The notes under the pieces are model-generated. The model searched no databases. It was not told the DNA's origin and saw nothing but the letters and a program-made list of their open reading frames with translations. A stretch of DNA of 63,835 bases, filler included, from Reclinomonas americana ATCC 50394 (lineage: Eukaryota), in NCBI GenBank assembly GCA_048213135.1. It is 12 parts of 12 records of this genome, joined end to end, with 100 filler letters (N's around TTAATTAATTAA, not from the genome) between each part and the next. Parts side by side here need not be neighbours in the genome. Positions count along the whole stretch, not along the records: positions 40,321 to 45,902 come from AFZH01016971.1; positions 46,003 to 48,188 come from AFZH01016972.1; 10 more parts are not named here. The stretch is one strand, 5' to 3'. Position 1 is the first letter of the stretch. Every line of letters begins with the position of its first letter. A program made the position numbers and the translations under genes. Positions 12,879-58,900 of the stretch are shown here, in pieces.

Positions 12879-13946
12879 TCACCTCCTTTTCCCCTCCTTG
12901 CCCCACACCACCACCTCCGCCTCCTCCACCACAAAACACCTCATCACCACCTCCACCAAGCACCACCTCTCATTGTCCTCCGGCTGCATCTCGCGCACCG
13001 CCCGCGCCGCCGCCCTCGCACACTCCAGCTCATACCTCGCCGCGCCACACGGCTCACACCACACCCGCACACACGCATCGGCGCTCCCGCTTACCACAAA
13101 CCGCCCATCGGGCGACACCGCCACGGCCCACACAGCCCCCGAACCCTCCTCCTTCAACCGACACAGCTCCTCGCCCGTCGCCAACGACCACACGCGCACC
13201 GTTCCACTCATGTCGGCACTCACCACGCGCTCACTGTCGCCCGTGACCGCGACCGCCACCACCTCCCCCGCCGCCTCCATGCGCCACACCAGCGCACCAT
13301 CACCCTCCATTGCAAACACGAGCACCGTGCGATCGCCGGCACTGACCACATACCGCGCATCCGCGGACACCGCCACCGCCTTGACGTGCGCCGTATGGAA
13401 GCCGCCCAGCCACCTCACCGCGCACCCTCGCTCCATTGACCACACGCACACGGCCATGTCTCGACTGCCGCTCACCACGTGCCGCCCGTCGCGCGAGACC
13501 GCCACACACGTCACTCCGTAGAGGTGTTGTCCGCGCAGCTGCAGCACCTCGGCGCCACTGGCCAGCAGCCACACGCGCACAGTCGTGTCCAGACTGCCGC
13601 TCACCACGTGTCGCCCCGAGGGAGTGAAGGCCACGGCGTGCACTGCACGTGTGTGTCCCTCCATGCGCTGCACCAGCTCGCCTTTTCCAGCCAGAGACCA
13701 CACGCACACAGAGGCGTCTTGTGCGCCACTGGCCACGAGGTTGCTGTCGGTGGGCGAGGTGGCGAGGGCGAGCACGGCGGTGGAGTGGGCTGTCCAGCGG
13801 AGAGGTGCTTCTTTGCGGCGGAGAGGAAGGAGAGGCCACACGCGGAGAGAGTGGTCGGCGCCGCCGGAGATGATGTGGTGGGCGTCGGCGGAGATGGCGA
13901 TGGCGTAGATGGAGCGGGAGTGGCCTTCGAGGCGGGAGAGGGACAT
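12879..13946 (-). CDS. Intronless WD40-repeat protein (~355 aa) with a C-terminal tail shared with 26530-27594
   Basis: About seven repeats such as LEGHSRSIYAIAISADAHHIISGGADHSLRVW and MEGHTRAVHAVAFTPSGRHVVSGSLDTTVRVW. ATG at 13946. Confidence 0.9.
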   Translation of the reverse strand: MSLSRLEGHSRSIYAIAISADAHHIISGGADHSLRVWPLLPLRRKEAPLRWTAHSTAVLALATSPTDSNLVASGAQDASVCVWSLAGKGELVQRMEGHTRAVHAVAFTPSGRHVVSGSLDTTVRVWLLASGAEVLQLRGQHLYGVTCVAVSRDGRHVVSGSRDMAVCVWSMERGCAVRWLGGFHTAHVKAVAVSADARYVVSAGDRTVLVFAMEGDGALVWRMEAAGEVVAVAVTGDSERVVSADMSGTVRVWSLATGEELCRLKEEGSGAVWAVAVSPDGRFVVSGSADACVRVWCEPCGAARYELECARAAARAVREMQPEDNERWCLVEVVMRCFVVEEAEVVVWGKEGKRR

Positions 13947-15159: not shown

Positions 15160-18100
15160 AGATCTCTTTCTCTCCCTCACTCGCAGTCTCTTTGTCACTC
15201 AGCGTTATTCTGTCTTCTGTCACTCAGTGCCTTCTTCTCCCTGTGGTTCTCACCATTTCTGTCTCCCCTTCTGTCTGTCTCTCACTCATTCACGAGGCAC
15301 AGGAGGTCTCTTCTCTTTGCTCATTCTCTTGAGTTGTCAACTGCCTCACCCCACTCTCGGCTATCTCCCTCCCTCTTGCTCACTTTCCCTCCCCATCACA
15401 GCCACGTTCAAAAAGTCCGCGGCAATCTCGAACTGTTACGCGCCACCCCGCTTCTTCCCTTCACTCTCCTCTCCCTCTCGCCCACTTCTCCTCTCCCCGA
15501 CAGCAACCAAGACCGCGATCTCACCCCCGAGCTGTCCTCGCTGCTGGCCCGCCGCAACGCCCTTCGCGATCAGGTCGCCGAGGCGCGCCAAAACACCGGG
15601 CGTCTGCGCAACGAGCTGGCCACGCTGCGACACGACCTGCTGAGCGTTGGTGCGCGCGCACACGTCTGCTGTTGTATGTGCTGCGTGCCTTGTCGCTCAC
15701 AATGTGGGGCAGAGCGCGATGTTGGCAACAAGCGCAGCGAGGATCGCGATGGGCATGTGGCCACGGCGCTGCTGGGTGCGTATGCGCAGCGGTGTGCGGA
15801 GAAGATGGCCGTGTTGCAGGAGTATGCGAGGCGTATTCAGCAGTTGCGTGAGGGGGAAAGGCGCGGAAGGGGGGTACACAGTGAAATGGCCTTCTTAGCC
15901 GCTCACTTCTTGCGCTGTTGCCTTTTTTGTGCGACGTCCGACCGCTTGCTGCGTCTGCAGTTTGCATCCGCTTGTCATTCTTTCTCTCGTCGTTCTCCCT
16001 GCATCACGAAACACACTCACCCTCTTCGTCTCTTGCTTATTCTCTCTCTCTCTCTCACTCTCTCTTCGTCTCTTTCTCTCTCGCTTGAAGCGCAACGAGA
16101 AGGCATTCTTGATCGCTCGCCTCTCACTCATTCTCTTTACTCAGGCGCACACTATTGCATCTCCGTCCTCTTCAATTCTCTCTTCTACGTTGTGCATCCA
16201 ATCGCCTGCAGTGCGAAGTGAGCTCTGACTTCGTCTCGGCGCCTGGAATTCTTCTCTCATTCGTCTCATTGCATCGCACTCCTCGAGGCTTTCTACTTTT
16301 CTCGCTAGTCTTTCGACAGGTATGCTTTCCGCCCGCTGCACCGTTAACAATTGTATTCTCCTTCTCTCNNNNNNNNNNNNNNNNNNNNNNNNNNNNNNNN
16401 NNNNNNNNNNNNTTAATTAATTAANNNNNNNNNNNNNNNNNNNNNNNNNNNNNNNNNNNNNNNNNNNNTCTCTCTCCCCTTCTCTCTCTCACCCTCCTCT
16501 CTTCCTCTCTCTCACTTGTTCGCTCGCTCTGCCCACAGGCGAACCACGCACGTCAAGCGCAGTGAGCGCAGTCTGCGGCCTGTGGATGATGCGGTGAGTG
16601 GCTTGATGCAGCCAGTCAACGATGCTTCTTTGTACTGACCCGCATGGACAGGCCACACTCCGATCCGCCGAGTTGTCTCGTCGCGTAGGCTCTCTGTGCG
16701 AAGAGATGCGACAGCTGGTGGAGAGCGAGTTGTACAGGGAGAGTGGGGAGCCGAGTTGCGTGAATGGAAGAAGTGGAGGCCACATCGTTTTGAGATGATT
16801 CGCGCCTCTCTCACTCCACCCCGACACGATGCTTCTCTCTCACACTCTAAACTCTGGCACAAGCTCATTTCTTCCCTCTTCTCCCCTAATCCTCCCCTCT
16901 TCCCCTTCACCTTCCCCTTCCCCACAGCCACCGACACGGCCCTCGTCGACACCATTCGCTCGCGCATCGCCCAAACCGAGTGCATGCCCGAGGAGCTGCT
17001 GCAGGCGCTGTGCACCGTCGTCAAGTCCGCCACGCAATCTCTGGCCGAGGACACCGACAAGATGGACCTGTCGCGCGATGCCGAGGAGCTGAGGTCAGTG
17101 AAAGGAGAGGAGATGAGAAGGTGATGTGAGACGGACGACTGAAGAATCATGCACGCAGGAAGCAACATGAGGACCGCGGTGAACTGAAGAGCGTGGGCGA
17201 TCTCATTGAGGAGATGCGCTCCACCCACGTGCAGACTTTCGTCGACGGAGAACAGTGCGTGCATCTTGTCGTTGATTGATCGTTTGACTGCTGACTCACA
17301 TTCCACCTCTCAGTGATCGCAACAAGGCCACGGCGCTGTCATCGCGCATCACCAGCTTGTGGTCGCAGTATCATCACGACGTGGTGGTGCGCCTCGAGCG
17401 CGATACGGATCCGTCGGACCTGCTGTTTGACTCGGCGCTCAAGTTGCGTGGCAAGGGCAAGCGAATGAGGGACGAGTGTTGATGTTTGTAAATGCAGGTT
17501 GCTGGAGGAGCGCGAGGCCGCACGATTGCAGTGTGCGCAGGTGGAGGCCGAGGCACATGCGCTGCGCGAGTGGTACGATCGTCTGCGAGCGAAGCGGTGA
17601 GTGGGTGGCGTGGTCTCGCGACTGGCATTCTGCTTGCTCACGAATGCACAGTGATGCTCTGTCCTCGCGCGTGGACGGCCTGCAAGCGCAGCTCGACGCG
17701 ATTCAGGATACGGAGCGCACGCGCGCCGATACGCAGCGCACGATTGCGGCGCTCACTGAGAAGAACATGCAGGCGCGCATGCAGTTGGCGGGCTTGCGGG
17801 AGGTGAGAAGGGGGAAAGGGGGCACAGGGGAAGGGGAGAGAGAGAGAGAGAAAGGCAAAGGAGAAAGAGCAGAAGCAGCTGCACGAATAGGAGAAGGGAG
17901 TGCAGGAGCAGAAGGCAGCAGGAGCAGCAGAAGGAACTGGACAAGGAGCACGAGCCAGAAGCACGAACACGATCAGCAGCACAAGCAGAAACAACTACAG
18001 GAACGGAGAGGGAGCAGATACAGGTGCAGAAGAAGGAGCAGGATAATGTGCACGAACAGGAGCCAGTGCAGGAGCAAGGAATAGGAGCAGGAGCACGAGC

Positions 18101-23400: not shown

Positions 23401-25029
23401 TACATGCCGCGACGGCTGGCTCGCGAGGCCTGCTGCTCGGTGGCCGGCTGTCGCTGCTTTTGCCGTCGCGAGGATCTTGATCGCGTCGTCTCTGCCTCCA
23501 CGGCGCTGGCGGCGGCCGCCAGCAGCGTGCCAATAAGGGGCGTGGCGGTGGAGGCGCGGGATCGTGCGCGTCTCGCGCTGTAGTCACCGTCGTCGGCGTC
23601 GTCTTCATCTTCTTGCTCATCGATGTCGTCGTCGTCGCCGAGCAGCTCGTCGTCAAAGTCGTCGAAATCGGAGTCGTCGCCGCTGAGGGGTTCGTCGTCG
23701 CCGTCGGAGAGGTCGGCGTCGTGGCGGGTGGTGTGGAGCTGTGTGGATGGGAGAAGGGGGAGATTGGGGAGGAGAAGGATGAGGGTGACGGGAAGGAGGG
23801 AGAGGGGGAGAAGACAAGAAGGAGGGAGAAGGATGAAGAGACGGAGAAACAGAGGGAGAGAGAACGAGAGGGGAACGCGGGAAACGGGCAAAAGAAGAGA
23901 TGGGGTGCAGGGAGAGAGTGGAAAAGGGCAAGACAAACTGAGAAGGGCACAAAAGCCTCCTTGAACTGAATGAATGCAGCACCAAAACACGACATGAATG
24001 AACACAAAATCCGCGCGAAGAGACAAAGAAAGACATAAGAGAGAAGACAGAGAGCGCTGAGCACAGAGTGAGGAAGAAGAGCGCACAGAGACAGGACAGA
24101 GAAGGGCCAAAAGCCTCCCTGACTTGCATAAATGCAAACACGACAAGAATGAGCACAAAATCCGCGCAAAGAGACAGAGAAAGACATGAGAGAGAAGACG
24201 GAGAGTGTTGCACACAGAGTGAGGGAGAAGAGTGCAAAGAGAGAGAGAGAGAGTCAGAGAAGGACACAAAAGCATCCTTATGAAAGCAACACCAAAACAC
24301 GACAAGAATGAGCACAAAATCCGCGCAAAGAGACAGAGAAAGACATGAGAGAGAAGACGGAGAGTGTTGCACACAGAGTGAGGGAGAAGAGTGCACAGAG
24401 AGAGGGTCAGAAGGGCACGAAAGCCTCCGAAACTTGCATGAAAGCAACAACAAACCCGACAAGAATGGACACGAAATCGCGCGAAGAGAGACACAAGAGA
24501 GAAGACAGAGAGTATTGAGCACCGAGTAGGGAGAAGAGTGCACAGAGAGAGAGAGTCAGAGAAGGACACAGAAGCCTCCTTGTGAAAGCAAGACCAAAAC
24601 ACGACAAGAATGAACACAAAATCCGCGCGAAGAGAGACATAAGAGAGAAGATAGAGAGTGTTGAGCACCAAGTAGGGAGAGAGAGAGCGAGACAGACATG
24701 CAAGTCCGCTTGAACAAAGCCGCATGAAAGCAACACCAAAACACTAGTAAATCAACATGCAAATCGAGAGGATCACAACGAAGCATTCTCTCTCTCTCTC
24801 GCATACACGCACACTCTTCTCTCTCTCTCTCTCTATCACACTCTCACACAGACACACAGCACAACACAACGCACAAACAAGAATCAATGCGCGCCAGAGT
24901 CCTGACAGAATGATGTCACTGCTCTCTTTCTCTCTCTCTCACTCACTCTTTCTCTCTCACACACACACTCTCTCTCTCTCTCTGTGCGCGCGTGTGTGTC
25001 TCTCACGCAACATTATGAGAGGCAGGCAT
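20426..25029 (-). CDS. Hypothetical low-complexity (acidic, Ser/Pro/Ala-rich) protein, about 6 exons
   Basis: GC-rich exons joined in frame by GT-AG introns: MPASHN|LHTTRHDADLSDGDDEP...EQMAA|AAAQVI...WGEA|SGRRSPV...PRPPV|VRPVV...|GVAPKR...PQKRARLHDELDGFVTR*. The start exon is tentative. Confidence 0.6.
23980..24750. repeat. Intronic degenerate tandem repeat, about 5 copies of ~130-170 nt
   Basis: Recurring acacgacaagaatgagcacaaaatccgcgcaaagagacagagaaagacatgagagagaagac. Confidence 0.85.
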
Positions 25030-26529: not shown

Positions 26530-27594
26530 ATGACCTCCCCTCCCGCCTTTCCCATCCTGCTGCCCACCACCTGCATCCGCACGCACCGCTCCCAAGTATG
26601 GGCCGTGGCCTTTTCCCGCGACAACCGCCACCTCATCAGCGGCAGCCACGACACCACCGCCCGCATGTGGTCCCTCCCCAGTGGCCGCGAGGTGCTCCGC
26701 CTGGAGGGACACACCGCATCCGTGCGAGCCCTCGCTGTTGTCCCTTCCACTAATGAGGAAGAGGAAGAGCTGGTGGTCACAGGCAGCGCCGACCACACTG
26801 TGCGCGTGTGGTCACTGTCCACGGGCGCAGAGGTGCGGCGACTGCAGGGCGCGCACGCGAGCTACGTGCTGAGCGTGGCAGTGTCGCCTGACGCGCGACT
26901 GGTGGTCAGTGGCGACAGTGATGGATTGGTGGTGGTGTGGTCGCTGGCTAGTGGTGACGAGGTGCGGCGATGGAGTGGCGACGGTTGCGCAGTGTACGCG
27001 CTGGCTGTCACTGCTGATAGCGAGCGTGTGGTCTGTGGAGGCGTGCTGCGCGTGTGCTCGCTGGCGACGGGCGAGGAGGTGTGGCGAGAGGCGTCGTGGG
27101 TGACGAGTGTGGCACTGCTCGGCGATGCAGTGGTGGTGACTGGTGGCATAGACAAGATCGTGCGCGTGTCGTCGCGCGAGTTTCGCGGGCATGCCAGTTG
27201 CGTTCGTGCAGTGGCGGTGACGCCGAGTGGACGGCATGTGGTGAGCGGCAGCAACGATGGCACGGTGCGGGTGTGGTCAATGGCGAGTGGGGAGCAGGTG
27301 CAGCGGTTGACGGGGAACGAGGATATGGTGTTGGCGGTGGCGGTGTCGCGTGACGGGCAGCACGTGGCGAGTGGGGGCGAGGATGCGTCGGTGCGAGTGT
27401 GGTCGACGCCGTGTGGGCTGGCGCGGGAGGAGGTGCGGTGTGCGGAGGAGGTGGTGGAGGTGGTGCGGGGGATGATGGAGATGATGATGGGGGAGGAGAG
27501 GAGGTGTTTGGTGGAGATGGTGATGAGGTGTTTTGTGGTGGAGGAGGCGAGGGTGGTGGTGTGGGGGTGTGTGGAGCGGGGGGAGTGTTTGTAG
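26530..27594 (+). CDS. Intronless WD40-repeat protein (354 aa), paralog of 12879-13946
   Basis: Repeats LEGHTASVRALAV..TGSADHTVRVW and FRGHASCVRAVAVTPSGRHVVSGSNDGTVRVW; shared tail CLVEMVMRCFVVEEARVVVWG. Confidence 0.9.
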   Translation: MTSPPAFPILLPTTCIRTHRSQVWAVAFSRDNRHLISGSHDTTARMWSLPSGREVLRLEGHTASVRALAVVPSTNEEEEELVVTGSADHTVRVWSLSTGAEVRRLQGAHASYVLSVAVSPDARLVVSGDSDGLVVVWSLASGDEVRRWSGDGCAVYALAVTADSERVVCGGVLRVCSLATGEEVWREASWVTSVALLGDAVVVTGGIDKIVRVSSREFRGHASCVRAVAVTPSGRHVVSGSNDGTVRVWSMASGEQVQRLTGNEDMVLAVAVSRDGQHVASGGEDASVRVWSTPCGLAREEVRCAEEVVEVVRGMMEMMMGEERRCLVEMVMRCFVVEEARVVVWGCVERGECL

Positions 27595-33235: not shown

Positions 33236-37366
<4,131 letters not shown>

Positions 37367-42612: not shown

Positions 42613-45600
42613 TTACGCCACCACAGAGCAATCGTCACCCTTCCAGCCAGCAAAGCACGCGCAGCGGCCAGAGGCCGAGCAGCGACCACGGCCGTTGCAT
42701 GACTCCACAGGGCGGCAGCCACCTACATACACCCACCAACATGTGAGGGACAAACAGCCAAGTGATCGACCGCAGCGCAGCAGCTCGACAGGTACGCAAC
42801 AGTCCGGACCACCGACACCGGTGAAGCAGCGGCATCGACCATTGACACATTGCCTGTGACGAGTAGTGCGGAGTGAGTACCGAGCGTAACGCAGAAGCTT
42901 GTCAGCAAACTGGACCACCAGCCACACACCCACTGCAACACAACCGCAATGAGCAACGATCGCGACAACAATCCACAGAGAAGAAGCACTCACTTGAACA
43001 AGCTGGCATTCTTGCTCCACGGAGCATTGCACTGCGCGTCGGTTGTGCAAACAGCCGGCTGCACCACGGTGGTCTCATCACGCGGGACCACGAACACCTC
43101 ACGGCGGTTGACCGTCGTTGTCGCACTCGGAGCCGCACCGTTCTCGATACGGTTGGTGATCTTGATCGTCGTACGCAGCTCTTGCTCTGTGCACACGCAC
43201 ATCGTAGCGCTGTCAGGACACACACACACACACACACAAAACAAAAATATGTATGTTTTTCTCACTGCACTTACCGGAGGCTTCGACCACCGAGTAGCCC
43301 TGAACGTCGGTGCGAATGAACTTGAACCACGGGTTGTTGTTCCAGTTGGCGTACAGCGTCGCCAGCTGCACAAGTTGACCTGCGTGAGACGGATGTGTGT
43401 GGTGAGCGTCAACGAAACCGCAATTGCATTCCAGCAAGCACACGCATACCGAATGCCGGGCTGGCCCTCACACCAGCCATCTGTGATGTACCATTGCAAT
43501 AATTCATACATGTCAGCGCCAAATCGCCGTGACAAGACATGCGTCATGCATGACTCACGATTTGAGCAAGAGTAGCATCCACGGCAGCGAGCGGAACGGC
43601 ATTCGACACAACGCGTCGGAGACGAATGGCCAGGTTGTCGGCAATGTCGTCAGCTGTCGGCGCCTTGCGCCCTGCCGTCCAGTCAAGAAGAGCAAGAGAG
43701 ACGTTGATGGTTCCGACGCCAGGGACTGGGATCGGCACCAGCTGTCCCACCAGCGGGGCGATGGAATCTGGCGTGGAGAAGGCGTAGTTGTCGTACATGG
43801 ACCACTCGCTCACCGCCGGCGAGGAGAACTCGATCGCGACCGGCGACGTGGCAGGGTCGCTGGCCTTGCTGAAGTCATCGTACACCTGCATGTGTGTCAG
43901 GTTGGCAAGTAACTCGGCATCACAGGCAGCAGATACGTCGCAACTTGGGAGACGATGGCTGCGCTGAAGCCTCCAGAGAGCACAACCACGTTCTTGATGC
44001 CCGACTTGCGCAAGTGAGAGAGAATGTCGGCACGCTCCGTCGCATAGCCATCCCACGTGTCTGGCAAGAAAAGAGCGGAATGAGCATCAACTTAGCAGAG
44101 AGTGCGTGGTCTCCACACTACGCACTCACCAGCACTAGCGAGGAACGTCTTGAGGTAGGGCGAAAGCGCGTTCTTCTGCCCGGTGGCAAGCAAGGCTTGC
44201 GAGTTGGCCTTGTTGGCGCGAATGTCGGGCTCGATGTACCCGAAAGCAATGGCCTGAGCCGCAGCACTGGCACCGCTGCCCGAGGGAGCTGTGGCAGCAG
44301 CGTTGAACGTGGCGACAACCACGGCCGCTTGCGAAGCCGTGAGGCCGGCGTTGATTGCGGCCGTGGTCAGGTTGCCGTTGGTGGCGGCGGCAACGGCCAC
44401 TGCCTGCGCAGCCGCAGCGGCCACTGTCTGTGTCGCACCGGTGAAGCTGGCGGCCACAACGACGGCGGCGACTGGCACAGGCAACGACAAGCCCGTGGCC
44501 GTCGTGGTGATGGACGTCTGGAGCTGAGTCAGCGAGTTGACTGCCACCAGGGTTGCCACCGCCTTGACGCCGTCGAACGCAAAGCGTGAGATCGTGTTGG
44601 GATTGGCCCAAAGGCGCCAGACAGGCGAGCCGGAGGTGAGCTTGGACTTGAGCCAATCGCGCTGCTGCTTGCCGACGACAGTGGTGAGGAACAGCGGGTC
44701 GTTGGGGTTGACAGAGGTGGCGGCGGCCACGAAGTTAGCCTCCACTCTGCGAAGGGAGCAAGAAACATGGAATAAGAAAGAACATCAGTGAGGTCGACAG
44801 CGCGCGGTGGGAGCTCAGCTACGCAACGCTGCGCGTGTAGCATCATCGACCAGAGAGCGAGATCCGACAAAGCCGATCTCCTTGTTCGTCAGCGGGTCAA
44901 TCGTGTTCTCGGGAATGGTCTGCGTGTGTCGGGAAACGGGCAAGTCAGAAGATCAGAAAGCATCTCGTCGCGTCGGGACGCGCGTAACATGGTCCGTGCG
45001 TGCAATACGCTCATCGCTGACGATCAGCTGAGCCAGCGTGCCATCTGCATGACACAGGCGAGATCAATGATCGTGACTGTCGGACTGCGCGAGACAAGTA
45101 TGCCCTACGCAACACTGGAAGTCACGGTAGACGCGCACAATGTCAAAGCTGTTCGGGTCACTGTCGTTCAGCACCACGTCAGCCGGAATGAACTCGAACC
45201 ACGCAATGGATGCGTTGCGGCGGCGTTGAGTCTGCATGCGTGCGCGAAATGAGAACGAGACGAGGCGAATGCACACACACTTGACGTCGAAAAAACATCA
45301 CACCTGGCGAGTATTGTTGTTGGGATACGTGTCGCGGTCTTGCCACGAAGCAAAGGAGAACTCAGTGTCGTCCCACCTGCAAAACTACACTTTACACACG
45401 CAGAAAAGCACCCATGGCTGCACGACAAGAAGAGAGCTGGCACGCAACGTAATGATCCAGGCAAAGGACTCATGCGCACGCTGCAGACGGGGGTCGGCAC
45501 GGTACGTGGCGTGAATGAAGCGGTAGTCGGCGAGGGTGTCACTGCGCGGTAGCAGCAACTTTAGTAGACTGCACACAGTGTTTCTTTGGAGCTCAAAAAA

Positions 45601-47789
45601 AAAACGCAACGCGCGGTAGGGATCGACAACGTCGCCTTTGATGCCGGTGGCATTCGGGAAATCGAAGGGGGCATGCGCGGACTCCTTGGTGGTGATCTGT
45701 GAGAGCGCGTTGCGATCAGTGAGCAGCCGGAGAGGGAGGGAGGGAGAGAGGGAAGGGAGGGAAGGGAGGGAGAGGGAAGGGAGAGAGGGAAGGGAGAGAG
45801 GGAAGGGAGAGAGGGAAGGGAGGGGGAAGGGAGGGGGAAGGGAGAGAGGGAAGGGAGGAGAAGGGAGGAGGGAAGGGAGGAGAAGGGAGGAGAAGGGAGG
45901 AGNNNNNNNNNNNNNNNNNNNNNNNNNNNNNNNNNNNNNNNNNNNNTTAATTAATTAANNNNNNNNNNNNNNNNNNNNNNNNNNNNNNNNNNNNNNNNNN
46001 NNAGGAGAAGGGAGGAGAAGGGAAGGGAGGGACTGGAGGAGGAGAGGGAGGAGAGGGTGGAGAGGGAAGGGAGGGAGGAGAGGGTGGAGAGGGAAGGGAG
46101 GGAAGGGAGGGAAGGGAGGGAAGGGAGGGGAGGGAAAGGAGCGTGAGTGAATTGTACGGGTTTTACGAGTCACGCAACAGTCTTGAAAACCACGCTGCAC
46201 ACGAGAACAAAACAAGCATCGTATTGATTACAGTTAGTTGCAGCGAAGAACTTGACGTGATGAACGAGCTCGCACTCAACTACTCCTGGATGCAGTCGCC
46301 GAGGCAAACAACAAAGTCGGTGTCGCTCTCGTTGTTGACCAGGTCGGTCAACGAGCTCCAGTGACCATCGTTCCAGTCAAGGCCCCACAGCACCGCAGTC
46401 TTCATGCGCGCCGGGGCGGATCCGGCAGCTGGGAAAGTCTTGAAGCGACCAACCTGCACCACGATGAGAGAAACAAGACACAGACCGCGCATCAGCATCA
46501 AATACGGGGAAAGAACGACAAATGACGCAATTCTCACCCGGGAGTACACGCTGCCTGCAATAAACTGGTAGTAGTACGTGGTGTTTGCGGCAAGGCCGGT
46601 GACCTTGGAGCGGACTGTGCCGTTGCGCGCACTGAGCGCAGCAACCTTGCGGTTCACCGCGAACGGTCCGGTGATCGGTGTGCTGTGTCAGGGGAGGGGC
46701 GAGCACAACGTCAGAGGAGTGAAAAAGAGCAGGCGTGGGAGATGTTGCGCAACACGCAACTTGCTGTTGAGGCGAGAGGCGTTGCCGGCATCGCTGCTCA
46801 CCACCAGCGTGATGGTGACGCTGCTGACAGTGTTGTCCAGCGCCACCACACGGGTCCACACGATCGCACCGTCGGGAGTCGGGTCGCCCGAAGCCACTGA
46901 TTGCGGGAACTGTTGCAGGCGGTGTGCTCAGCACCAACGACACACACGCACACACATACACACACGCGCGACTCACCTTCCAGTTGGACCCCGCGGCCTC
47001 AGGAGGCGACAGGTCGGCACACTGCGGTCCAGAACGTCCCTCGACGCAGCTCTGGCAATTGGTGCCAGCGAACGGGAACGGGCACTGTCCGAACAGTCAG
47101 CGCCGCCAATTGAAGAAAACGAAACCAGAGAGCATTCACGCACGTAGCAAGTTCCGTCATGCAGACACAAACCGCGTCCGGAGCAAGTTCCGGCATCGGT
47201 GCACGGAGTCGGGTTGGGCACATACTGATCGGCGCCCTGCCCGCAGAATGGGAATCCGGTCTTCTTGTAGTTGGGAGCGCACACCTCGCAGAACGCTCCG
47301 CGATACTGTGTGGGCGAGGCAAGAGGAGAGTGTCTGACGTAAGTATGCGCGTCATGTCACGCGCGGAAAAATACAAAACACACACACACACGCACGCACA
47401 CACACACGCACGCGCGCGCACCTGAATGTTGCACACACAGACGCTGTTGACGCAGTTGCCGCCAGGCTGGTTGCACTGCTGGTTGGTGGTGCATGCGCCA
47501 CCTGTGCGCGTGGAGAGAGGTGTGGGGGGACGGAGGAAATGTCACATGTCTCACGCGCACACACGCACCGCCCGTCTGCGCGTGCGCAGTGATGGCACAC
47601 AGTGCCAGCAGAATGCTGTGAGAGAGTGTGAGCGCAAGTGTGTTCGAAGAGAGAGAGAGAGAGTTGGGACATCGGAGCCTTAGGTCACCCTGCTTGCACA
47701 ATTAATAAACGGAGTCAACGATAAACGCGTTCGGGGAAATACCACCCCAGCACGGAACTGCAGGTTAAGATGACGATGGAGCGGTGCAT
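42613..47789 (-). CDS. Secreted EGF-repeat + alkaline phosphatase D (PhoD)-fold protein, about 23 exons, with most metal ligands substituted
   Basis: Signal peptide MHRSIVILTCSSVLGCILLALCAITAHA; EGF-like Cys repeats at both ends; FPQSVASGDPTPDGAIVWTR, TTYYYQF, GDCIQEY, TLADYR, WIITWDDTE, GKQQRDWL, DTWDGYATER and NPWFKF..QGY. Confidence 0.88.
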
Positions 47790-48928: not shown

Positions 48929-51120
48929 ATGCGCAGCACTGGTCACGTCCCAGCTCCTCTCAAACGCACTGCAGAGCGCGTGGAGATTGGTGAGTGTGTG
49001 AGACAGAGAGACAGAGATAGAGTTGACTAACAAGCAACAGGTGTTGTCATGTTCGATTTGTCTCAAGTTGACATCGCTTTTGCGAGGCGAGATTTTTTAT
49101 CGTGTTTGTGCACAGCGGAGTGGGTGGTTTGCATTGTGGGACATGCTTGCTGTTGCTTTGTCTGCCTCCAACGTGGACTGGAACGTGGGCTCATTGTTTA
49201 TTTGTGATTTTCTTTGTGTGTTTGTGTGTGCAGGGACGTGGGTGCGACAGGCGAATCCTGAGGATGTGGCCACTCATACACCACTTGTTGCGTAAAGGAG
49301 GAGGAAAGGGGGAGGAGAAGGGGGAGGAGAAGTTGATCAAGAAGAGAAGGTGAAGGAGAAGATGATCAAGGAGAACAGAAGAGACTGAGAAAGACAAGGA
49401 GGATCTGCGCACCGACTGCTGAGTGAGGGAGAAAGGGAGGAGGAGAAGGTGTCTACAGGTCGAGTGGCAAAAGGCCAAGAAGAGAGAGAGAGAAAGAGGG
49501 AGAGACAGAGAGAGACGGAGTAATCAGAGGGAATGTCGACGGAGCAAGGGATAAGAAGAGAATCAGTGAAGGTGGCAGGAGAGGAAACGAGAGACAGAGT
49601 TATCAGAAGGATGACAGCGAGGATGGAAAGAATCTGAGCAGATTGTCAGAGGAGAAGAGGGAGAAGAAGGAGAAGAAGGGAGGAAGAGAAGGTGGCAAGT
49701 GTCCAAGGAGAGGAACAGAGACAGAAGGAATGACTGAAGGAAAGGGAGATGCTTCCCCTTCCCCTTTCCCTCACTCTCCCCCTCCCCCTCCTCCCTTCCC
49801 CTCCTCTCACAGATCTGCAAAGTGGTGTTCTCCGCCCGCGTCTTCGCCTGGGAGATCAACGCCACCACGGCCTGCGGTGAACGACACTGTATCGAAATCC
49901 CCTTCGATACAGTCGCTGGTCTCGGTACGTTACTCTCCTCCCCATTTCTCTCCTCCCCCTATCTCACACCCGACCACCACAGACATTCAGTCGGTGACGA
50001 CCACCAAGCGGAAAATCAGCAATCTCATCATCGAGGTGATGTGCCCGCCCAGGCTGCTGTCGGGCTTGCATCGCAACTCGTCAAAGACCGAGTGGAAGGA
50101 GGCGACGTACGATGTCACTGGTGGCCAGGCATTCATGTTGCGTAGCGAGCTGGGGTGAAGAGATCATGCTTTTTTCTTCTCTCTCTCTCTCTCTCCACCT
50201 CCTCGCTCTTCAACCCTCGCTCCTCAACCCTCGCACTTCAATCCTTGCACCCTCATTTTTCAACCCACTCTCCTCAACCTCATTCTTTAACTCTCGCTCC
50301 TCAACAACCACCCTTCATCAACCCTCGCTTTTCAACCCTCGCTCTTCAACCCTCGCTCTTCAACCCTTGCTCCTACTCTCCTCGTCTTTCGCTCCTCAAC
50401 CCTCGTTCCTCAACCCTCACTGCTCCACCCTCGTTTCTCAACCCTCGTTTGTCAACCCTCTCTCCTCAACCCTTGCCCGCACTCTGCAACCCTTCCTCTT
50501 CAACCCTTGCTCCTACTCAACCCTCAACCCTTGCTTGCTCTTCAACCCTCGTTCCTCCAACCTCGCTCCTCATCTTTCGCTCCTCAACCCTGTTTCTCAA
50601 CCCTCGTTCCTCAACCCTTGCTCCTCCTCAACCCTTGCTCCACAATCATCACTCCCCAACCTTTGCTTCTCAACCCTTCCCCCCTTTAGATGTCGCTACC
50701 ACACGGTCACCGTCAAAGCCGCCGCCCTCAACGCCCTCCGCGAACTCTTTGGCTTTTACGAACCGCGCCTCAGCGACCTCCTCGGCCGCGGCCTCGTCGT
50801 GAACCCCCACGACATCTACTTCCGCAACGTCGCCGTGATGCCCATGACCGCCGGCGCCTCACCATCCTCCGTGCTCGCCTCGCCACTCATGTCACCCACC
50901 TCCCCACCACCCATGGGTGGTGGGCGCTTGCGGCGCGCTGGATCACCCGATCCCTCACAACAAGCACCACCACCACCACCACCACCGCCACCACCACCAC
51001 CAGCACCAGCACCAGCACCTGCAGCCGCACCACCGATGCCGCCGGGCGTTGTGCATGCAATGCAGCCAGCGCCCATGCACCATCACGCCACCCCACCCGT
51101 GTCCATGGAGTGCATGGATG

Positions 51121-51154
<34 letters not shown>

Positions 51155-52400
51155 AGCGTACATGCCAGCCAGCTACATGTCGCCGCCACCGCCACCGGGT
51201 CCCATCCGCGCGCCCATTCGTCGCGTGAGGGAGCCACCTGCGTCGCACGCGACATTTATTCCGCTGCGCCCGACGACGGCGGCAGCGACAACGGCTACCA
51301 CCATGTACGCTCCGCTGCCGACCAACATGCTGCCGCCATCGCTACCGCCGCCACCGCCACCACCGCCTGCGCCGCCAGTCGTGAAGATGGAGTCGATGGA
51401 GTCGCCTCCGCAGCCGAGCATGTTGGTCATCCCACCGTCGCCAGTGGCGGCTCACTCCTCCTCCTCCTCCTCCTCGTCGACCACTACCACCACTACCACT
51501 GCTGTGGCGGTGAGCGTTGACGACAGTGGAGTGGGCGGCAGTGGAGTGGCGACGGCGGTATGGGAGGAGTCGGCGTTCTCGTCGTCGCCTCACCACTTGT
51601 CGGCGTCGCCCGACGGAATGCTCTTCAAGCAGTCGCCGTCGCCGCCGCCATGGCAGTCCCTGTCGTCGTCGATTGCAGTTGCGCCGACTCTGCATTCTCT
51701 GTGCACGCCAGTGAGCTCACACACATCTTCTCCACGCAGAGTCGATTCCCCGTGTCGGCAATGCTGGCGCCAATGGGACTCTTTGCCATGTCGGGCTCGC
51801 CGCTCTTCATGACCTCACACTCGCCGGAGCTGCAGCCGTCATCGATGGAAACCGCCTTTGGCTCGTACTACTCGCCCCCGTCGCCGCCCAAGAGCCGCAG
51901 CAGCTTCTCGCCTCCCGCCTCGCCGGGAATGCACGCGGCCACACCGCCGCACATGTATCGCCACCTCGACCTGTCGCAAGGCATGCGACAGCCGCTGCGA
52001 TGCGAGGTGCGTCTTTCATGCCCCCTTCTTTATCACTTGCTTCTGTCTTCTCACCTTTACCCCTTCTTCGAAACAGGCTCACACTGCCAGCTTCCACATG
52101 AACCCGTCGCCACCGCCAGTGCAGCCACCGCTGACTGGTCCCGGTACCAAGCGCACCATGGACGCGGTTCTGCTGGAAGAGTCGACGATGATGTGTGAGC
52201 AGCAGCAGCAGTCGAGCACGGGCGGCCCACCGAACCAGGTGGGCGCCAGCGGCGTGCAGCTGTGGATCTCCCCGCCGCACATGATGATGGCCGGTAACGG
52301 TGGTGCCGGTGGCACGGCTGCTGCTGCTACTACTGCAGGAGTCAGTGGTGGGGTTGGCGAACCGCCAACCAAGATGCGACCAACATCCATGCACCTATAG
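48929..52400 (+). CDS. Protein with an N-terminal TRF2/HOY1-type PH-like domain and a long Pro/Ser-rich tail
   Basis: Spliced VEIGTWVR..LICKVVFSARVFAWEI..IEIPF..W..DVTGGQAFICRYH..EPRL resembles the plant/amoebozoan IGxW..LVAKCYFAK.KLVWE..DFTGGQAS..R.H family. The start codon is tentative. Confidence 0.7.
50200..50685. repeat. Intronic degenerate short repeat with core TCAACCCT
   Basis: More than 20 occurrences of tcaaccc(t) at irregular, mostly 15-20-nt spacing. Confidence 0.85.
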
Positions 52401-54710: not shown

Positions 54711-54741
<31 letters not shown>

Positions 54742-55028
54742 TACGTACGTACGTACGTACGTACGTACGTACGTACGTACGTACGTACGTACGTACGTAC
54801 GTAGTAGTAGTAGACGTACGTACGTANNNNNNNNNNNNNNNNNNNNNNNNNNNNNNNNNNNNNNNNNNNNTTAATTAATTAANNNNNNNNNNNNNNNNNN
54901 NNNNNNNNNNNNNNNNNNNNNNNNNNGTATGAGGTGGCGTGGAGGAGTGAGCGAGTGCGGCGAGAGTCGTTTAGTTAAGGACGATGCGCAGTGGTCGTGT
55001 GTGTATGTGTTTGTCACGCGCAGTGAGA

Positions 55029-55960: not shown

Positions 55961-58900
55961 ATGGATGTCGACATGGAGATGCTGGAGGCCGTGCTGGCCT
56001 CGGCCCCAGTACCGACGAGCGCGATGAAGCCGAACCACCCCACCACCGGTGCCACTGAGCACGAGAACGGCAGCGTTGTCGCCATTGTCGCCGATCGAGA
56101 AGATAATGTCGAGGAGATGGAGGGAGGAGAAGGAGAAGGCCGCGTTGTTGGGAGACGAAGGGAACGCGAGAATCAACATCAGGAGGAGGAGGAACAGGAG
56201 GAAGGAGAGGGAGGAGTAGGCCGCGTCACCAGAAGTCGTCGACGAGCGGCGACCGAGGTCGTGGCACCGCCCGACGATCAGCCAATTGTCGGCAGCAGCG
56301 GACGACCAGTGCGCAATGCGGCTCGTGGGTCGCTGCTGAGAAGGCGGCAGCAGGCAGAGGCCTCGCAACAACAACAACAGCAGCCGCGACGGAGCGCGCG
56401 TGGCAAGACACAGCCAGCGGCTACTGCTGCGGACGCCGATGCCGACGATGAGGGTGAGGGCGAGGAGTGCGAGGCTGAGGAGGAAGAGGACGAAGAGGAG
56501 GAGGAGGAGGAAGGCGAGGAGGAGGACGATGATGACGGAAGTGACTTTGGAAGCGGGCAGCAGACTCGCCGTGGTCGGGGTCGTGGACGACGGGGCGGTG
56601 GTCGCATGGCCCCCGTGTCGAGATCCACGGTGCATGCGCCAGTGGTGTGTGCGCCGCCGGCTGCCATGTCGCCGTTCCAGCGTTTCAAATCGGCGCGCAT
56701 GCAAGTTGCGATTGTGTTGGGAGGGAAGGAAGAAGGAGAGAGAGAGAGATGATCTCATTTCTTTGGTTCAATCTATTAGTCACCGGTGCTGTTGCCGTGC
56801 AACGCGACGGCGGCTGACGTGGCCGCCGCCACACTTCTGCAGGCGGCCGCCGCCGTCTCGTCGCCGTACAACTCGCCGCAGAAGCCACTCGTTTCCACGG
56901 CGACAACTACGACCACGACCACCACGACGACGACGACAACGATCACACGAAATGTGCGACAATCGCCTGCTCTCACCGCCGCAGCGCCGCCGCCGTCCAT
57001 GCCGGCCGGTGTTCCGATTGCCACCATGAACAGCAGATCGCGGTCGGCTGCGCTGCAGGAGGCACTCGAGGGCGGTGAGCATGCTGGAGGTTTGGTCGTC
57101 CCTCAACCTTTTTCTTCCTTCACTCTTTATGCTCGCCATCTCATCGCTGCGCATGCACACACAGGCGGTCGCCGCGGCAAACTGAAGCGTGGTGCGGCTC
57201 TGTTGGGCGGTCGATTCTATCTGCCGTCTGCCGATTCGCTGGCACGGCAGTGCATTGTGGAGCTGGCGCGTCACAATGGTGGCCCGCTGACGCTGGATGA
57301 GATTGCGGATGGTGTGACTCGGCGATCGGCGTTTGTTTTCACCGCCAATGTGCCGCCAAGGGTGCGTAGGAAAGGGAAAGGGAAAGGGAGAAGATGAAGG
57401 GAAGGGGAAGGGAGAGAAAAGGGGAAGACAAAGGGAAAGAGAGTGGAGAGGGTGGCGAGAGAGAGAGAGAGAAAAGATAAAGGGAGAGGAATGGAAAGGA
57501 GAGGACAACGAGAATTAGAAAGGGACAGCGTAGGATAGAAGATCAAATGGGGAGGAAGGGAAGGAGAAAGCGGGAAGTGGAGAGAAACAGGGAATTAGGA
57601 CAAGGGGAGAGTGGTGAAGGTGGCGAGAGTGTGTGCAGAAAAGGAGGATTAACTGTTCTTACTTGATGTGTGCGTTCTCTCTCATTGTGTGCTTTTGATC
57701 TGCACTTCTGCTTTCCTTCCACTCACTGAAGTTGGGCACTGATGGTCGAATATGCTTATTGTTTTCTTTCTTGAGCTCTCATGCATCTGGCCTCTTGTTA
57801 TTTGTCTCATTCTCTCTCGTCTCTCGCTCTCATCTCTTTTTGCCCGTTCCCCACCCTTCCCATCCTTCCCCCTTCCCTCTTTTCTCCCTTCTCCCTTTCC
57901 CTTACCCCCCTCTTCCCCCCTCGCAGATCTCCGTGGCCAACGCCGTCCGCCAACAAGCTCGTCGCTACGACAACCGCGCACTGCTGGACCTCCCCCGCCA
58001 AGGCCGCGTCTCGCTGGTCGACGGTTGGGTGGACTTCCGCTCGCTGCTCTCTGCCGACCCGCCCGCCCGCTCGCCGTCGGACGAGCTGGCGGTGACGTCG
58101 GGCGAGGACACGGATCCCGCCGTCGGCGCCAGTCCGGCTCTGCGCGGCATTAGCGCCAGCCCTGCCCCACGCACTGCCAGCCAGAGTCCGGCCATGCGTG
58201 GAGTGAGCGCGAGTCGCAGTCCGGCCATGCGCCCGGCGCGCACACTGAGCGCTTCGCCTGCGCTCCGACCCAGTCGGTTCAGCCTGCCGCCGCCAAAGAC
58301 GTGCCTGTCCCCAGCAGCACCCACTCCGCCAGAGGATGTTCACTTGCCGGTGCCGCTCCTCGCCGCGTCCCCTTCGTCGTCGCTGTCGTCGCCCGTGTCC
58401 GCTACCATGGCGGTGGTCGACTCCGCAGCGCTCACCGTGCCCGTGCCGCTGCCGGTGCCGATGGACTTGTCCGCCGGCGACGATGAGAGGCGGCGCGTCA
58501 GCAAGAGGCATGCGTCGCGCGATTCCGGTCTGGTGCCGACCGAGGACTGGCCGTCGGGGCAGAAGCTAGGCGGCAAGGTATGTGTTGTGGGAGGGAGGAA
58601 TAATGTGAGATGGGTGTCTTACGTTTTGCGCGTGCCTCTTGCAGTGGTGGGTTCCGCCGGGAGACGCGCTCTGCTCCCAGATCATTCACGAGCTGGCGCT
58701 GGCCAATGGCGGACCGCTGACGTCGCCGGAGCTGGCGGATCGCATTGCCGCGCGTGGTGCATTCACGTCGTCGGCAAAGGTGGCACCGAGGGTGAGCGAA
58801 GGAGGGGAAGGCGGGAGGGTGTGAGAGGGGGAAGGAGTGAGGAGGAGGGCTGATGTGGAGACAGGGTGGAATTTAGGGAGAAGGTGCAGCGTTGGTCTTT

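Follow-up and report, generated by a model that had tools for sequence, protein, structure and literature searches.

A frequent second class of donor sites, GT+T+NCGT, in an intron-rich stretch of the Reclinomonas americana genome

We analysed a 63,835-nucleotide (nt) stretch of the draft genome of Reclinomonas americana ATCC 50394, called the window below, in which genes for a PhoD-like phosphatase, SAMDC and PRODH carry introns that begin with GTTGCGT or a close variant of it. The window is eukaryotic, intron-rich and 55.6% G+C, and holds 11 gaps written N44-TTAATTAATTAA-N44; all the evidence comes from sequence, reading frames and homology within it. An earlier note on this DNA had listed 23 introns with such donors (5' splice sites), here called the GTT class, and had proposed that they point to a systematic second mode of donor recognition. 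A donor class of the form GT+T+NCGT is indeed present, and it is real, frequent and systematic. It is marked at the sequence level by junctions at 13 sites, an excess of the heptamer, the exclusion of G from exon position -1, a near-restriction to C at intron position +5, and introns whose 3' ends and lengths match those of ordinary ones.

The PhoD-like gene was modelled from coordinates on the minus strand with 22 GT..AG introns, giving 2,994 nt of coding sequence that form one open frame of 997 codons with a single terminal stop. As the earlier note had counted, 10 of the 22 donors in this model belong to the GTT class (eight GTTGCG, one GTTGAG and one GTTACG). When 13 exons were scanned singly, seven matched Pfam PhoD_N (positions 2-40 and 46-83) or PhoD (6-35, 62-90, 118-149, 184-221 and 233-265) in collinear order, five had no match and one had an unrelated weak match. 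The spliced protein scores 203.6 bits against a profile hidden Markov model (HMM) of 74 bacterial PhoD proteins, built from open reading frames (ORFs) that were chosen from 110 ORFs out of 111 stretches located with a scan for the degenerate pattern WDDHEV..NN. Exon 10 alone gave 0 matches against PDB, and in a word-based search for relatives (exon 16 and longer lengths) 0 of 610 candidates scored at E up to 0.001. The protein starts with a signal-peptide-like segment, and EGF-like cysteine modules flank its catalytic domain on either side; exon 14 (44131-44745) holds a long Ala/Thr-rich low-complexity insert, and intron 7 contains a (CCCTCC/CCTTCC)n repeat at 45740-46160 on both sides of a scaffold gap, so that its real length may differ from the assembled one.

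The PhoD junctions were compared with 71 alternatives, each combining a GT or GC donor with any AG acceptor within ±15 nt of the intron borders and leaving the frame open. Listing alternative introns exhaustively without a distance limit was uninformative, with exon-deleting solutions abundant, and a simple ORF-bridging score for candidate donors chose wrong phases. The junction at 45448, which the earlier note had read as WIIT/WDD (the slash marks the junction), is supported on two grounds: the end of exon 9 falls at Pfam PhoD position 90 and, in an alignment with residues 178-206 of Bacillus PhoD (PDB 2yeq), at residue 206, and all three alternatives score lower, by 7.0 to 14.1 bits. Alternatives are also disfavoured at 45113 (two, -7.0 and -13.0 bits), at 43944 (three, -2.6 to -5.4), at 46280 (a sole in-frame alternative within ±15 nt, -6.3) and at 45610, where the only alternative, a GC donor 3 nt downstream, costs 2.1 bits. 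At 46760 the corresponding GC-AG model loses 0.6 bits and the other in-frame alternative 1.3 bits.

The SAMDC model, with four exons mapped, aligns without a gap to an HMM of 53 homologues (279.8 bits), which were length-selected from the best 60 of 120 matches listed, with a best identity of 54%. The junction GLRA/LGRDQW at 11775, read in this way by the earlier note, is upheld, with all nine alternatives losing 4.7 to 31.3 bits. At 11028 no other GT/GC..AG pair within ±30 nt leaves the frame open, and the alignment is again gapless. The third SAMDC intron (9336-10527, minus strand, donor GTGCGG) is about 1.19 kb long and the first is 676 nt, while most introns in the window have 55-90 nt. 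The nearest named SAMDC relatives among the matches listed are the amoebozoans Nematostelium and Vermistella at 48-49% identity, which may serve as a weak indication of lineage. A cross-species check through a metagenome locus (48% identity) was uninformative, its SAMDC being intronless, at 41% GC and from an unrelated organism. In PRODH the exon upstream of the intron at 4008 ends at Pro_dh position 244, the split codon accounts for 245, and the exon that follows has position 247 as its second residue, so that the proposed junction GYN/AIKVLPYGP is gapless; this intron crosses an assembly gap. All 22 PhoD introns, the SAMDC introns and the PRODH intron at 4008 start with GT and end with AG at frame-restoring junctions.

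Homology thus appears to fix 13 of the 23 claimed donors, namely 10 in PhoD (four of them weakly), two in SAMDC and one in PRODH. The claim that frame and motif place all 23 stands in part: beyond these 13, eight sites have open frames on both sides and are frame-consistent only (15435+, 16755+, 17443+, 34970+, 35102+, 50137+, 51678+ and 56705+), and two, 25011- and 49287+, lack a convincing acceptor. The introns at 34970 and 35102 enclose a 77-nt exon that encodes a hydrophobic helix and belong to a gene for a multi-pass membrane protein, whose only homology is a weak Ferric_reduct match in a later exon; upstream of this gene, a long (AG)n microsatellite occupies 34320-34480 directly after a scaffold gap. 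The intron at 15435 lies upstream of a weak HAUS5-like exon, and at 51678 the upstream ORF reads through as well. Coordinates are collected in Table 1.

Table 1. The PhoD-like gene and the 23 claimed GTT-class donors, with the introns assigned to them (positions in the window; slashes mark junctions)
Feature	Position	Strand	Intron	Length (nt)	Phase	Exon -1	Remark
PhoD-like phosphatase gene	42613..47789	-					ATG 47789 to TAA 42613; 22 introns
PhoD donor GTTGCGT	46754..46760	-	46760..46683	78	2	A	
PhoD donor GTTGAGT	46274..46280	-	46280..46195	86	2	A	
PhoD donor GTTGCGT	46172..46178	-	46178..45697	482 as assembled	0	T	after 16-nt exon; crosses assembly gap
PhoD donor GTTGCGT	45604..45610	-	45610..45542	69	2	C	
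PhoD donor GTTGCGT	45442..45448	-	45448..45377	72	2	C	at WIIT/WDD
PhoD donor GTTGCGT	45107..45113	-	45113..45045	69	1	T	
PhoD donor GTTACGC	44982..44988	-	44988..44920	69	0	T	
PhoD donor GTTGCGT	44821..44827	-	44827..44747	81	2	C	
PhoD donor GTTGCGA	43938..43944	-	43944..43886	59	0	A	
PhoD donor GTTGCGT	42794..42800	-	42800..42723	78	1	T	in EGF-like module
SAMDC donor GTTGCGT	11769..11775	-	11775..11100	676	0	T	at GLRA/LGRDQW
SAMDC donor GTTTCGT	11022..11028	-	11028..10964	65	2	A	
PRODH donor GTTGCGT	4008..4014	+	4008..5290		2	A	at GYN/AIKVLPYGP
Donor GTTGCGT	34970..34976	+	34970..35024	55		C	CTGAC 12 nt before AG
Donor GTTGCGT	35102..35108	+	35102..35165	64		A	same gene as 34970; frame-consistent
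Donor GTTGCGT	16755..16761	+	likely 16755..16927	173		A	bridges 49- and 64-codon frames
Donor GTTGCGT	17443..17449	+	likely 17443..17497	55		A	frame-consistent
Donor GTTACGC	15435..15441	+	likely 15435..15503	69		T	frame-consistent
Donor GTTGCGA	56705..56711	+	likely 56705..56779	75		A	frame-consistent
Site GTTGCGC	51678..51684	+	possible 51678..51739	62		A	frame-consistent
Site GTTGCGT	50137..50143	+	possible 50137..50689	553		T	frame-consistent
Claimed donor site GTTGCGT	49287..49293	+				T	no convincing acceptor found
Claimed probable donor site GTTGCGT	25005..25011	-				T	72-codon open frame upstream; no convincing acceptor

To characterize the abundance of the motif, we compared counts on both strands with 100 dinucleotide-preserving shuffles. 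All 19 GTTGCG coordinates of the earlier note occur in the pattern list of the window, and its related donors read as given there, GTTACG at 15435+ and 44988-, GTTGAG at 46280- and GTTTCG at 11028-. GTTGCG occurs 55 times in the window against 37.7±5.9 expected, a count reached by 0 of 100 shuffles. For the heptamer GTTGCGT, 22 occurrences stand against 6.9±2.5 expected (0 of 100 shuffles, shuffle maximum 14), and this surplus of about 15 corresponds to the 16 claimed donors that read GTTGCGT. T at +7 is found in 16 of the 19 claimed GTTGCG donors but in only 6 of the 36 other GTTGCG sites (Fisher p=1.5e-6), and exact GTTGCG starts 10 of 24 checked introns, compared with 0.77% of GT sites (binomial 1e-15). 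GTTGCGT also occurs at 8287-, 15843+, 25375+ and 34577+, sites that are off the earlier list and not obviously exonic; 25375+ alone would have G at -1.

Donor-agnostic gene finders, which combined codon log-odds with GT..AG alone or added a weak acceptor matrix and a length prior, gave a further view of donor frequency. The version with matrix and prior, which knows donors only as GT, ranks GTTGCG top, with 6 of 53 predicted donors against 55 of 7,186 GT sites, all six within the PhoD gene; it is imprecise, recovering 10 of 22 checked donors, and was used for hexamer ranking alone. When both donor classes were supplied, a finder picked up 19 of the 23 claimed donors; its 47 predicted introns in genes with scores above 30 include 15 of consensus GTT class, with 7 of 29 outside the PhoD gene. 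The share of about a quarter that the earlier note had estimated for hand-traced introns agrees with this output, an estimate that is partly circular.

The class is narrower than first described. The earlier note had seen each donor as one of the genome's usual donors with one extra T after GT: the extra T stands, but it is not added to any usual donor, the cores being almost exclusively NCGT. C precedes G-T in 12 of 13 homology-fixed GTT donors and in 3 of 11 ordinary ones, among which GTGAGT dominates (p=0.002), and 16 of the 23 claimed donors are exactly GTTGCGT. The class is therefore essentially GT+T+NCGT, the genome's NCGT-type donor plus one T. The bases at exon position -1 over the 23 claimed sites (A 10, T 9, C 4, G 0) bear out the claimed absence of G, and the contrast with ordinary donors holds as well, since 10 of 13 of these have G there but 0 of the 13 GTT donors that homology fixes (Fisher p=1e-4). 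GTT introns are more often in phase 2 (7 of 13 versus 1 of 11, p=0.03), an excess that may follow from the -1 rule, since codon position 2 is G-poor. At -3 the donors look unshifted (C/A in 19 of 23) and at -1 shifted, a mixed signal from 23 sites that codon phase confounds. C is frequent at +4 of ordinary donors in the window (GTGCGT, GTGCGG, GTGCGC), a feature that few eukaryotes have; a +4C preference is also reported for Mastigamoeba, Thecamonas and Mamiellales (bioRxiv 2022.06.08.495308).

Beyond the donor, the two kinds of intron are alike. Ten of 12 GTT introns have 59-86 nt, comparable to ordinary introns. Branch-like motifs are found at similar rates in GTT and ordinary introns (strict CTRAY in 6 of 12 and 4 of 10, loose YTNAY in 10 of 12 and 9 of 10), and the pyrimidine fraction near the 3' end is 0.65 in the former and 0.63 in the latter. 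The signals of U12-type introns, an [AG]TATCCTT donor and a TCCTTRA branch, were found in 0 of 22 introns.

We lean, with modest conviction, towards the reading that GTT-class introns are genuine GT-AG spliceosomal introns of this genome's ordinary short type, with the donor N/GUUGCGU in which N is never G, and that the major spliceosome recognizes them through U1 and U6 pairing that a shift or a bulge displaces by one nucleotide, perhaps with a U1 modified in this lineage. The donor GU-U-(G/A/U)CGU would then be an NCGU-type donor with one extra uridine after GU, the major spliceosome would remove the introns, and the U1 5' end would pair, one position off, with the conserved GCGU. This could come about through a shift of the register, with G+1 opposite U1 C9 and U+2 mismatched, or through the bulging of one U; U6 would likewise tolerate the extra nucleotide, and cleavage would stay at the only GU. 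The requirement for C at +5 suggests a U1 in this lineage with G in place of the pseudouridine-5 of most eukaryotes, as in reports on Mastigamoeba.

To explore this pairing we modelled duplexes with ViennaRNA between donor positions -3..+9 and the 11-nt U1 5' end. With standard U1, which may not be the host's, mean energies are -1.16 kcal/mol for GTT donors (n=13), -7.29 for ordinary donors (n=11) and -2.59 for random GT sites (n=400). With a U1 that has G at position 5, hypothetical for this host, the means become -4.70, -7.52 and -3.70 kcal/mol, respectively. This G5 U1 is predicted to adopt the shifted register at several GTT sites (-4.2 to -7.4 kcal/mol), with -1 paired to U10, G+1 to C9, U+2 unpaired opposite C8, and U+3 to U+7 paired; at 46760 the predicted duplex reaches -7.4 kcal/mol, with A-1:U10, G+1:C9 and U+2 unpaired. 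The shifted register would fit the absence of G-1 better than the bulge.

Several observations weigh against this reading or against parts of it. GTT donors pair with standard U1 more weakly than random GT sites do, and even with the G5 U1 their mean lies near random; so tight a consensus is therefore poorly accounted for if one U1 pairs with all donors. The bulge register predicts G to be favoured at -1, where it occurs in 0 of 23 sites, and exon-side statistics from -3 to -1 leave the register unsettled. The exact cleavage sites rest on frame and homology, and at four PhoD junctions (46178, 44827, 44988 and 42800) homology resolves them weakly, leaving frame and motif to fix them. The region around 46178 is poorly conserved, with alternatives from -2.6 to +1.2 bits, four of which beat the base model by +0.1 to +1.2. 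At 44827 the four alternatives that combine a GC donor with a GAG acceptor gain +0.7 to +2.7 bits, and at 44988 five alternatives range from -3.8 to +0.7, the +0.7 being the same donor with a GAG acceptor. The junction at 42800 lies outside the PhoD HMM, where alternatives score 0.0 bits, and its support is therefore the frame and the cysteine pattern (the split codon T/GT encodes Cys).

A consensus tighter than pairing strength would give brings a variant small nuclear RNA (snRNA) or a protein-driven mode into consideration. In the former, a dedicated second U1-type or variant snRNA with a 5' end complementary to GUUGCGU would act in parallel to the U1 that serves GURAGU and GUNCGU, a proposal we regard as unlikely but the most serious competitor. 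The heptamer is very tight for a merely tolerated site (GTTGCGT in 16 of 23; the C preference noted above), pairing is worse than random with standard U1 and only slightly better with G5, and no G at all is admitted at -1. Amoebozoa are reported to have co-evolved or multiple U1 variants, as in Entamoeba, Mastigamoeba and Physarum, the last with standard and modified U1 (bioRxiv 2022.06.08.495308), and the nearest named SAMDC relatives listed are amoebozoans. However, an Rfam scan of the window gave 0 matches at gathering scores, so no snRNA gene, and none to an snRNA among 35 sub-threshold matches at E up to 1, mostly to microRNA families; the two donor classes alternate within single genes and agree in 3' signals and lengths, and shifted or bulged pairing to a single U1 is proven elsewhere (PMC4856993). 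Put more broadly, and in our judgement still doubtful, two parallel systems of 5' splice-site recognition would work in the same genes, the usual one for G/GURAGU and G/GUNCGU and another for H/GUUGCGU with its own U1-type snRNA or U1-associated protein, and G-1 would be the switch between them; if true, donor recognition would exist in a third form, in addition to the major and minor spliceosomes. Recognition led by proteins or by U6/U5, through an altered U1C, LUC7, Prp8 or a factor of the tri-snRNP (small nuclear ribonucleoprotein), would make GUUGCGU an extreme 'intron-side' class in which U1 has a minor part. Predicted U1 pairing is weak in all registers tried, the class has no exon-side G-1 and depends on +4 to +7, and the LUC7 family is reported to define two classes of 5' splice site by exon-side versus intron-side strength (bioRxiv 2022.12.07.519539). 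Yet the window holds nothing bearing on these proteins, and a conserved GCGU would suit the needs of a base-pairing partner. We regard such recognition as improbable.

The remaining explanations fare much worse. Were the boundaries mis-placed, the introns might be GC-AG introns starting 3 nt downstream (GTT/GCGT) or might use other nearby sites. Such a +3 shift preserves the frame at every GTTGCG site, it costs little at poorly conserved junctions (46760 -0.6 bits, 46178 -0.2, 44827 -0.8, 42800 0.0), and a few GC..GAG alternatives at 44827 score above the model, as described above. The +3 model is nevertheless never better: it is lower at seven of eight PhoD GTTGCG junctions (-0.2 to -7.0, sum -20.9) and equal at 42800, and it loses 7.0 bits at both 45448 and 45113, 3.2 at 43944, 2.1 at 45610 and 4.7 at SAMDC 11775, inserting a residue in each case. 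The PRODH profile numbering has no room for an extra residue, the GTTACG, GTTGAG and GTTTCG donors would go unexplained, and an invariant GTT would be needed at exon ends in all three codon phases, so we consider mis-placement very improbable. We give slightly less credence still to a recent spread of one intron family through a mobile element that includes the donor motif; such a family was among the explanations offered in the earlier note. The high local density, with 10 of the 22 PhoD introns, and the uniform 7-nt start would suit such a family, but 66 pairwise local alignments of intron bodies reveal nothing in common beyond the first 7-8 nt (mean score 8.45 versus 8.16 shuffled, maximum 25 versus 27), no terminal repeats or duplications were seen on reading the sequence, and sizes and 3' signals are like those of ordinary introns; this part of the earlier note is not supported. 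Equally remote is a sequencing or assembly artefact that put a spurious T into GTGCGT donors of a gap-rich draft. The window does have 11 scaffold gaps and an indel within an intron would leave the reading frame intact, but the 2,994 nt of PhoD exons without a frameshift indicate that indel errors are rare, and an error would neither select 10 of 22 donors in one gene nor avoid G-1 donors (0 of 23) or GTGAGT donors.

Two further features of the window are recorded here. Many of the sub-threshold Rfam matches sit on low-complexity or palindromic sequence, among them microRNA-family matches on both strands of a single palindromic low-complexity stretch at 54732-54809, which are most likely due to chance. 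Among intron-rich neighbours lie two intronless WD40-repeat genes of about 355 codons each (12879-13946, minus strand; 26530-27594, plus strand); they are paralogues with 43% identity and have a conserved C-terminal tail in common.

The frequency of GTTGCGT starts suggests that a start signal very seldom seen in humans is in routine use by the splicing machinery of this organism. Off-register U1 pairing is experimentally proven in human cells, for shifted and +2/+3-bulged registers alike, yet marginal there: all validated noncanonical registers together are reported to account for 1.5% of 201,541 sites, with only tens of predicted sites in each of two bulge classes, 68 for +2/+3 and 51 for +3 (PMC4856993). 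A full-text literature search, with the organism's own literature outside its scope, returned no GUUGCG/GTTGCG donor class and no high-frequency shifted registers in protists. About a quarter of introns in one form, with a strict consensus and a strict -1 rule, would make a natural test system for how spliceosomal cleavage stays in place when the register of pairing changes, how such sites are handed over by U1 and U6, and whether donor classes and snRNAs co-evolve. In practice, gene finders trained on standard donors will mis-predict a large share of genes here. Judged from the sequence, the finding would be of clear interest to splicing research.

Among known systems, U12-type introns likewise place a second tightly conserved donor consensus beside the main one, but their motifs are missing from the 22 introns scanned. 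Introner elements produce many similar-looking introns within single genes, whereas the intron bodies of the GTT class have no mutual sequence similarity. In the copepod Eurytemora affinis, GA and GG donors are reported in about 12% of introns (PMC5714493), an atypical class that, as here, is common enough to break standard gene models; there GT itself is changed, while here GT is kept and the spacing changes. Entamoeba has GUUUGU donors with a U1 that reads ACAAAC, and Mastigamoeba a U1 with ACGUAC and +4C donors (bioRxiv 2022.06.08.495308). These systems with a co-evolved U1 resemble the present one in an amoebozoan-type context and in donors with C at +4 and G at +5, and a Mastigamoeba-like U1 with G5 would explain why the GTT class requires C; as described, however, each has one altered consensus of normal length, whereas two length classes occur here in the same genes. 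In the mammalian shifted and bulged sites (Tan, Roca et al. 2016, PMC4856993), as in the GTT class, an additional nucleotide comes after a genuine GU at the cleavage site, so that the conserved bases downstream align with U1 one position off register, and the ambiguity between U+2 and U+3 is that of the mammalian 'bulge +2/+3' class. Unlike those sites, whose consensus is GUUAAGU-like, the donors described here read GUUGCGU, exclude G at -1, have a register that we infer, and start 10 of the 22 PhoD introns, with a share of roughly a quarter outside that gene.

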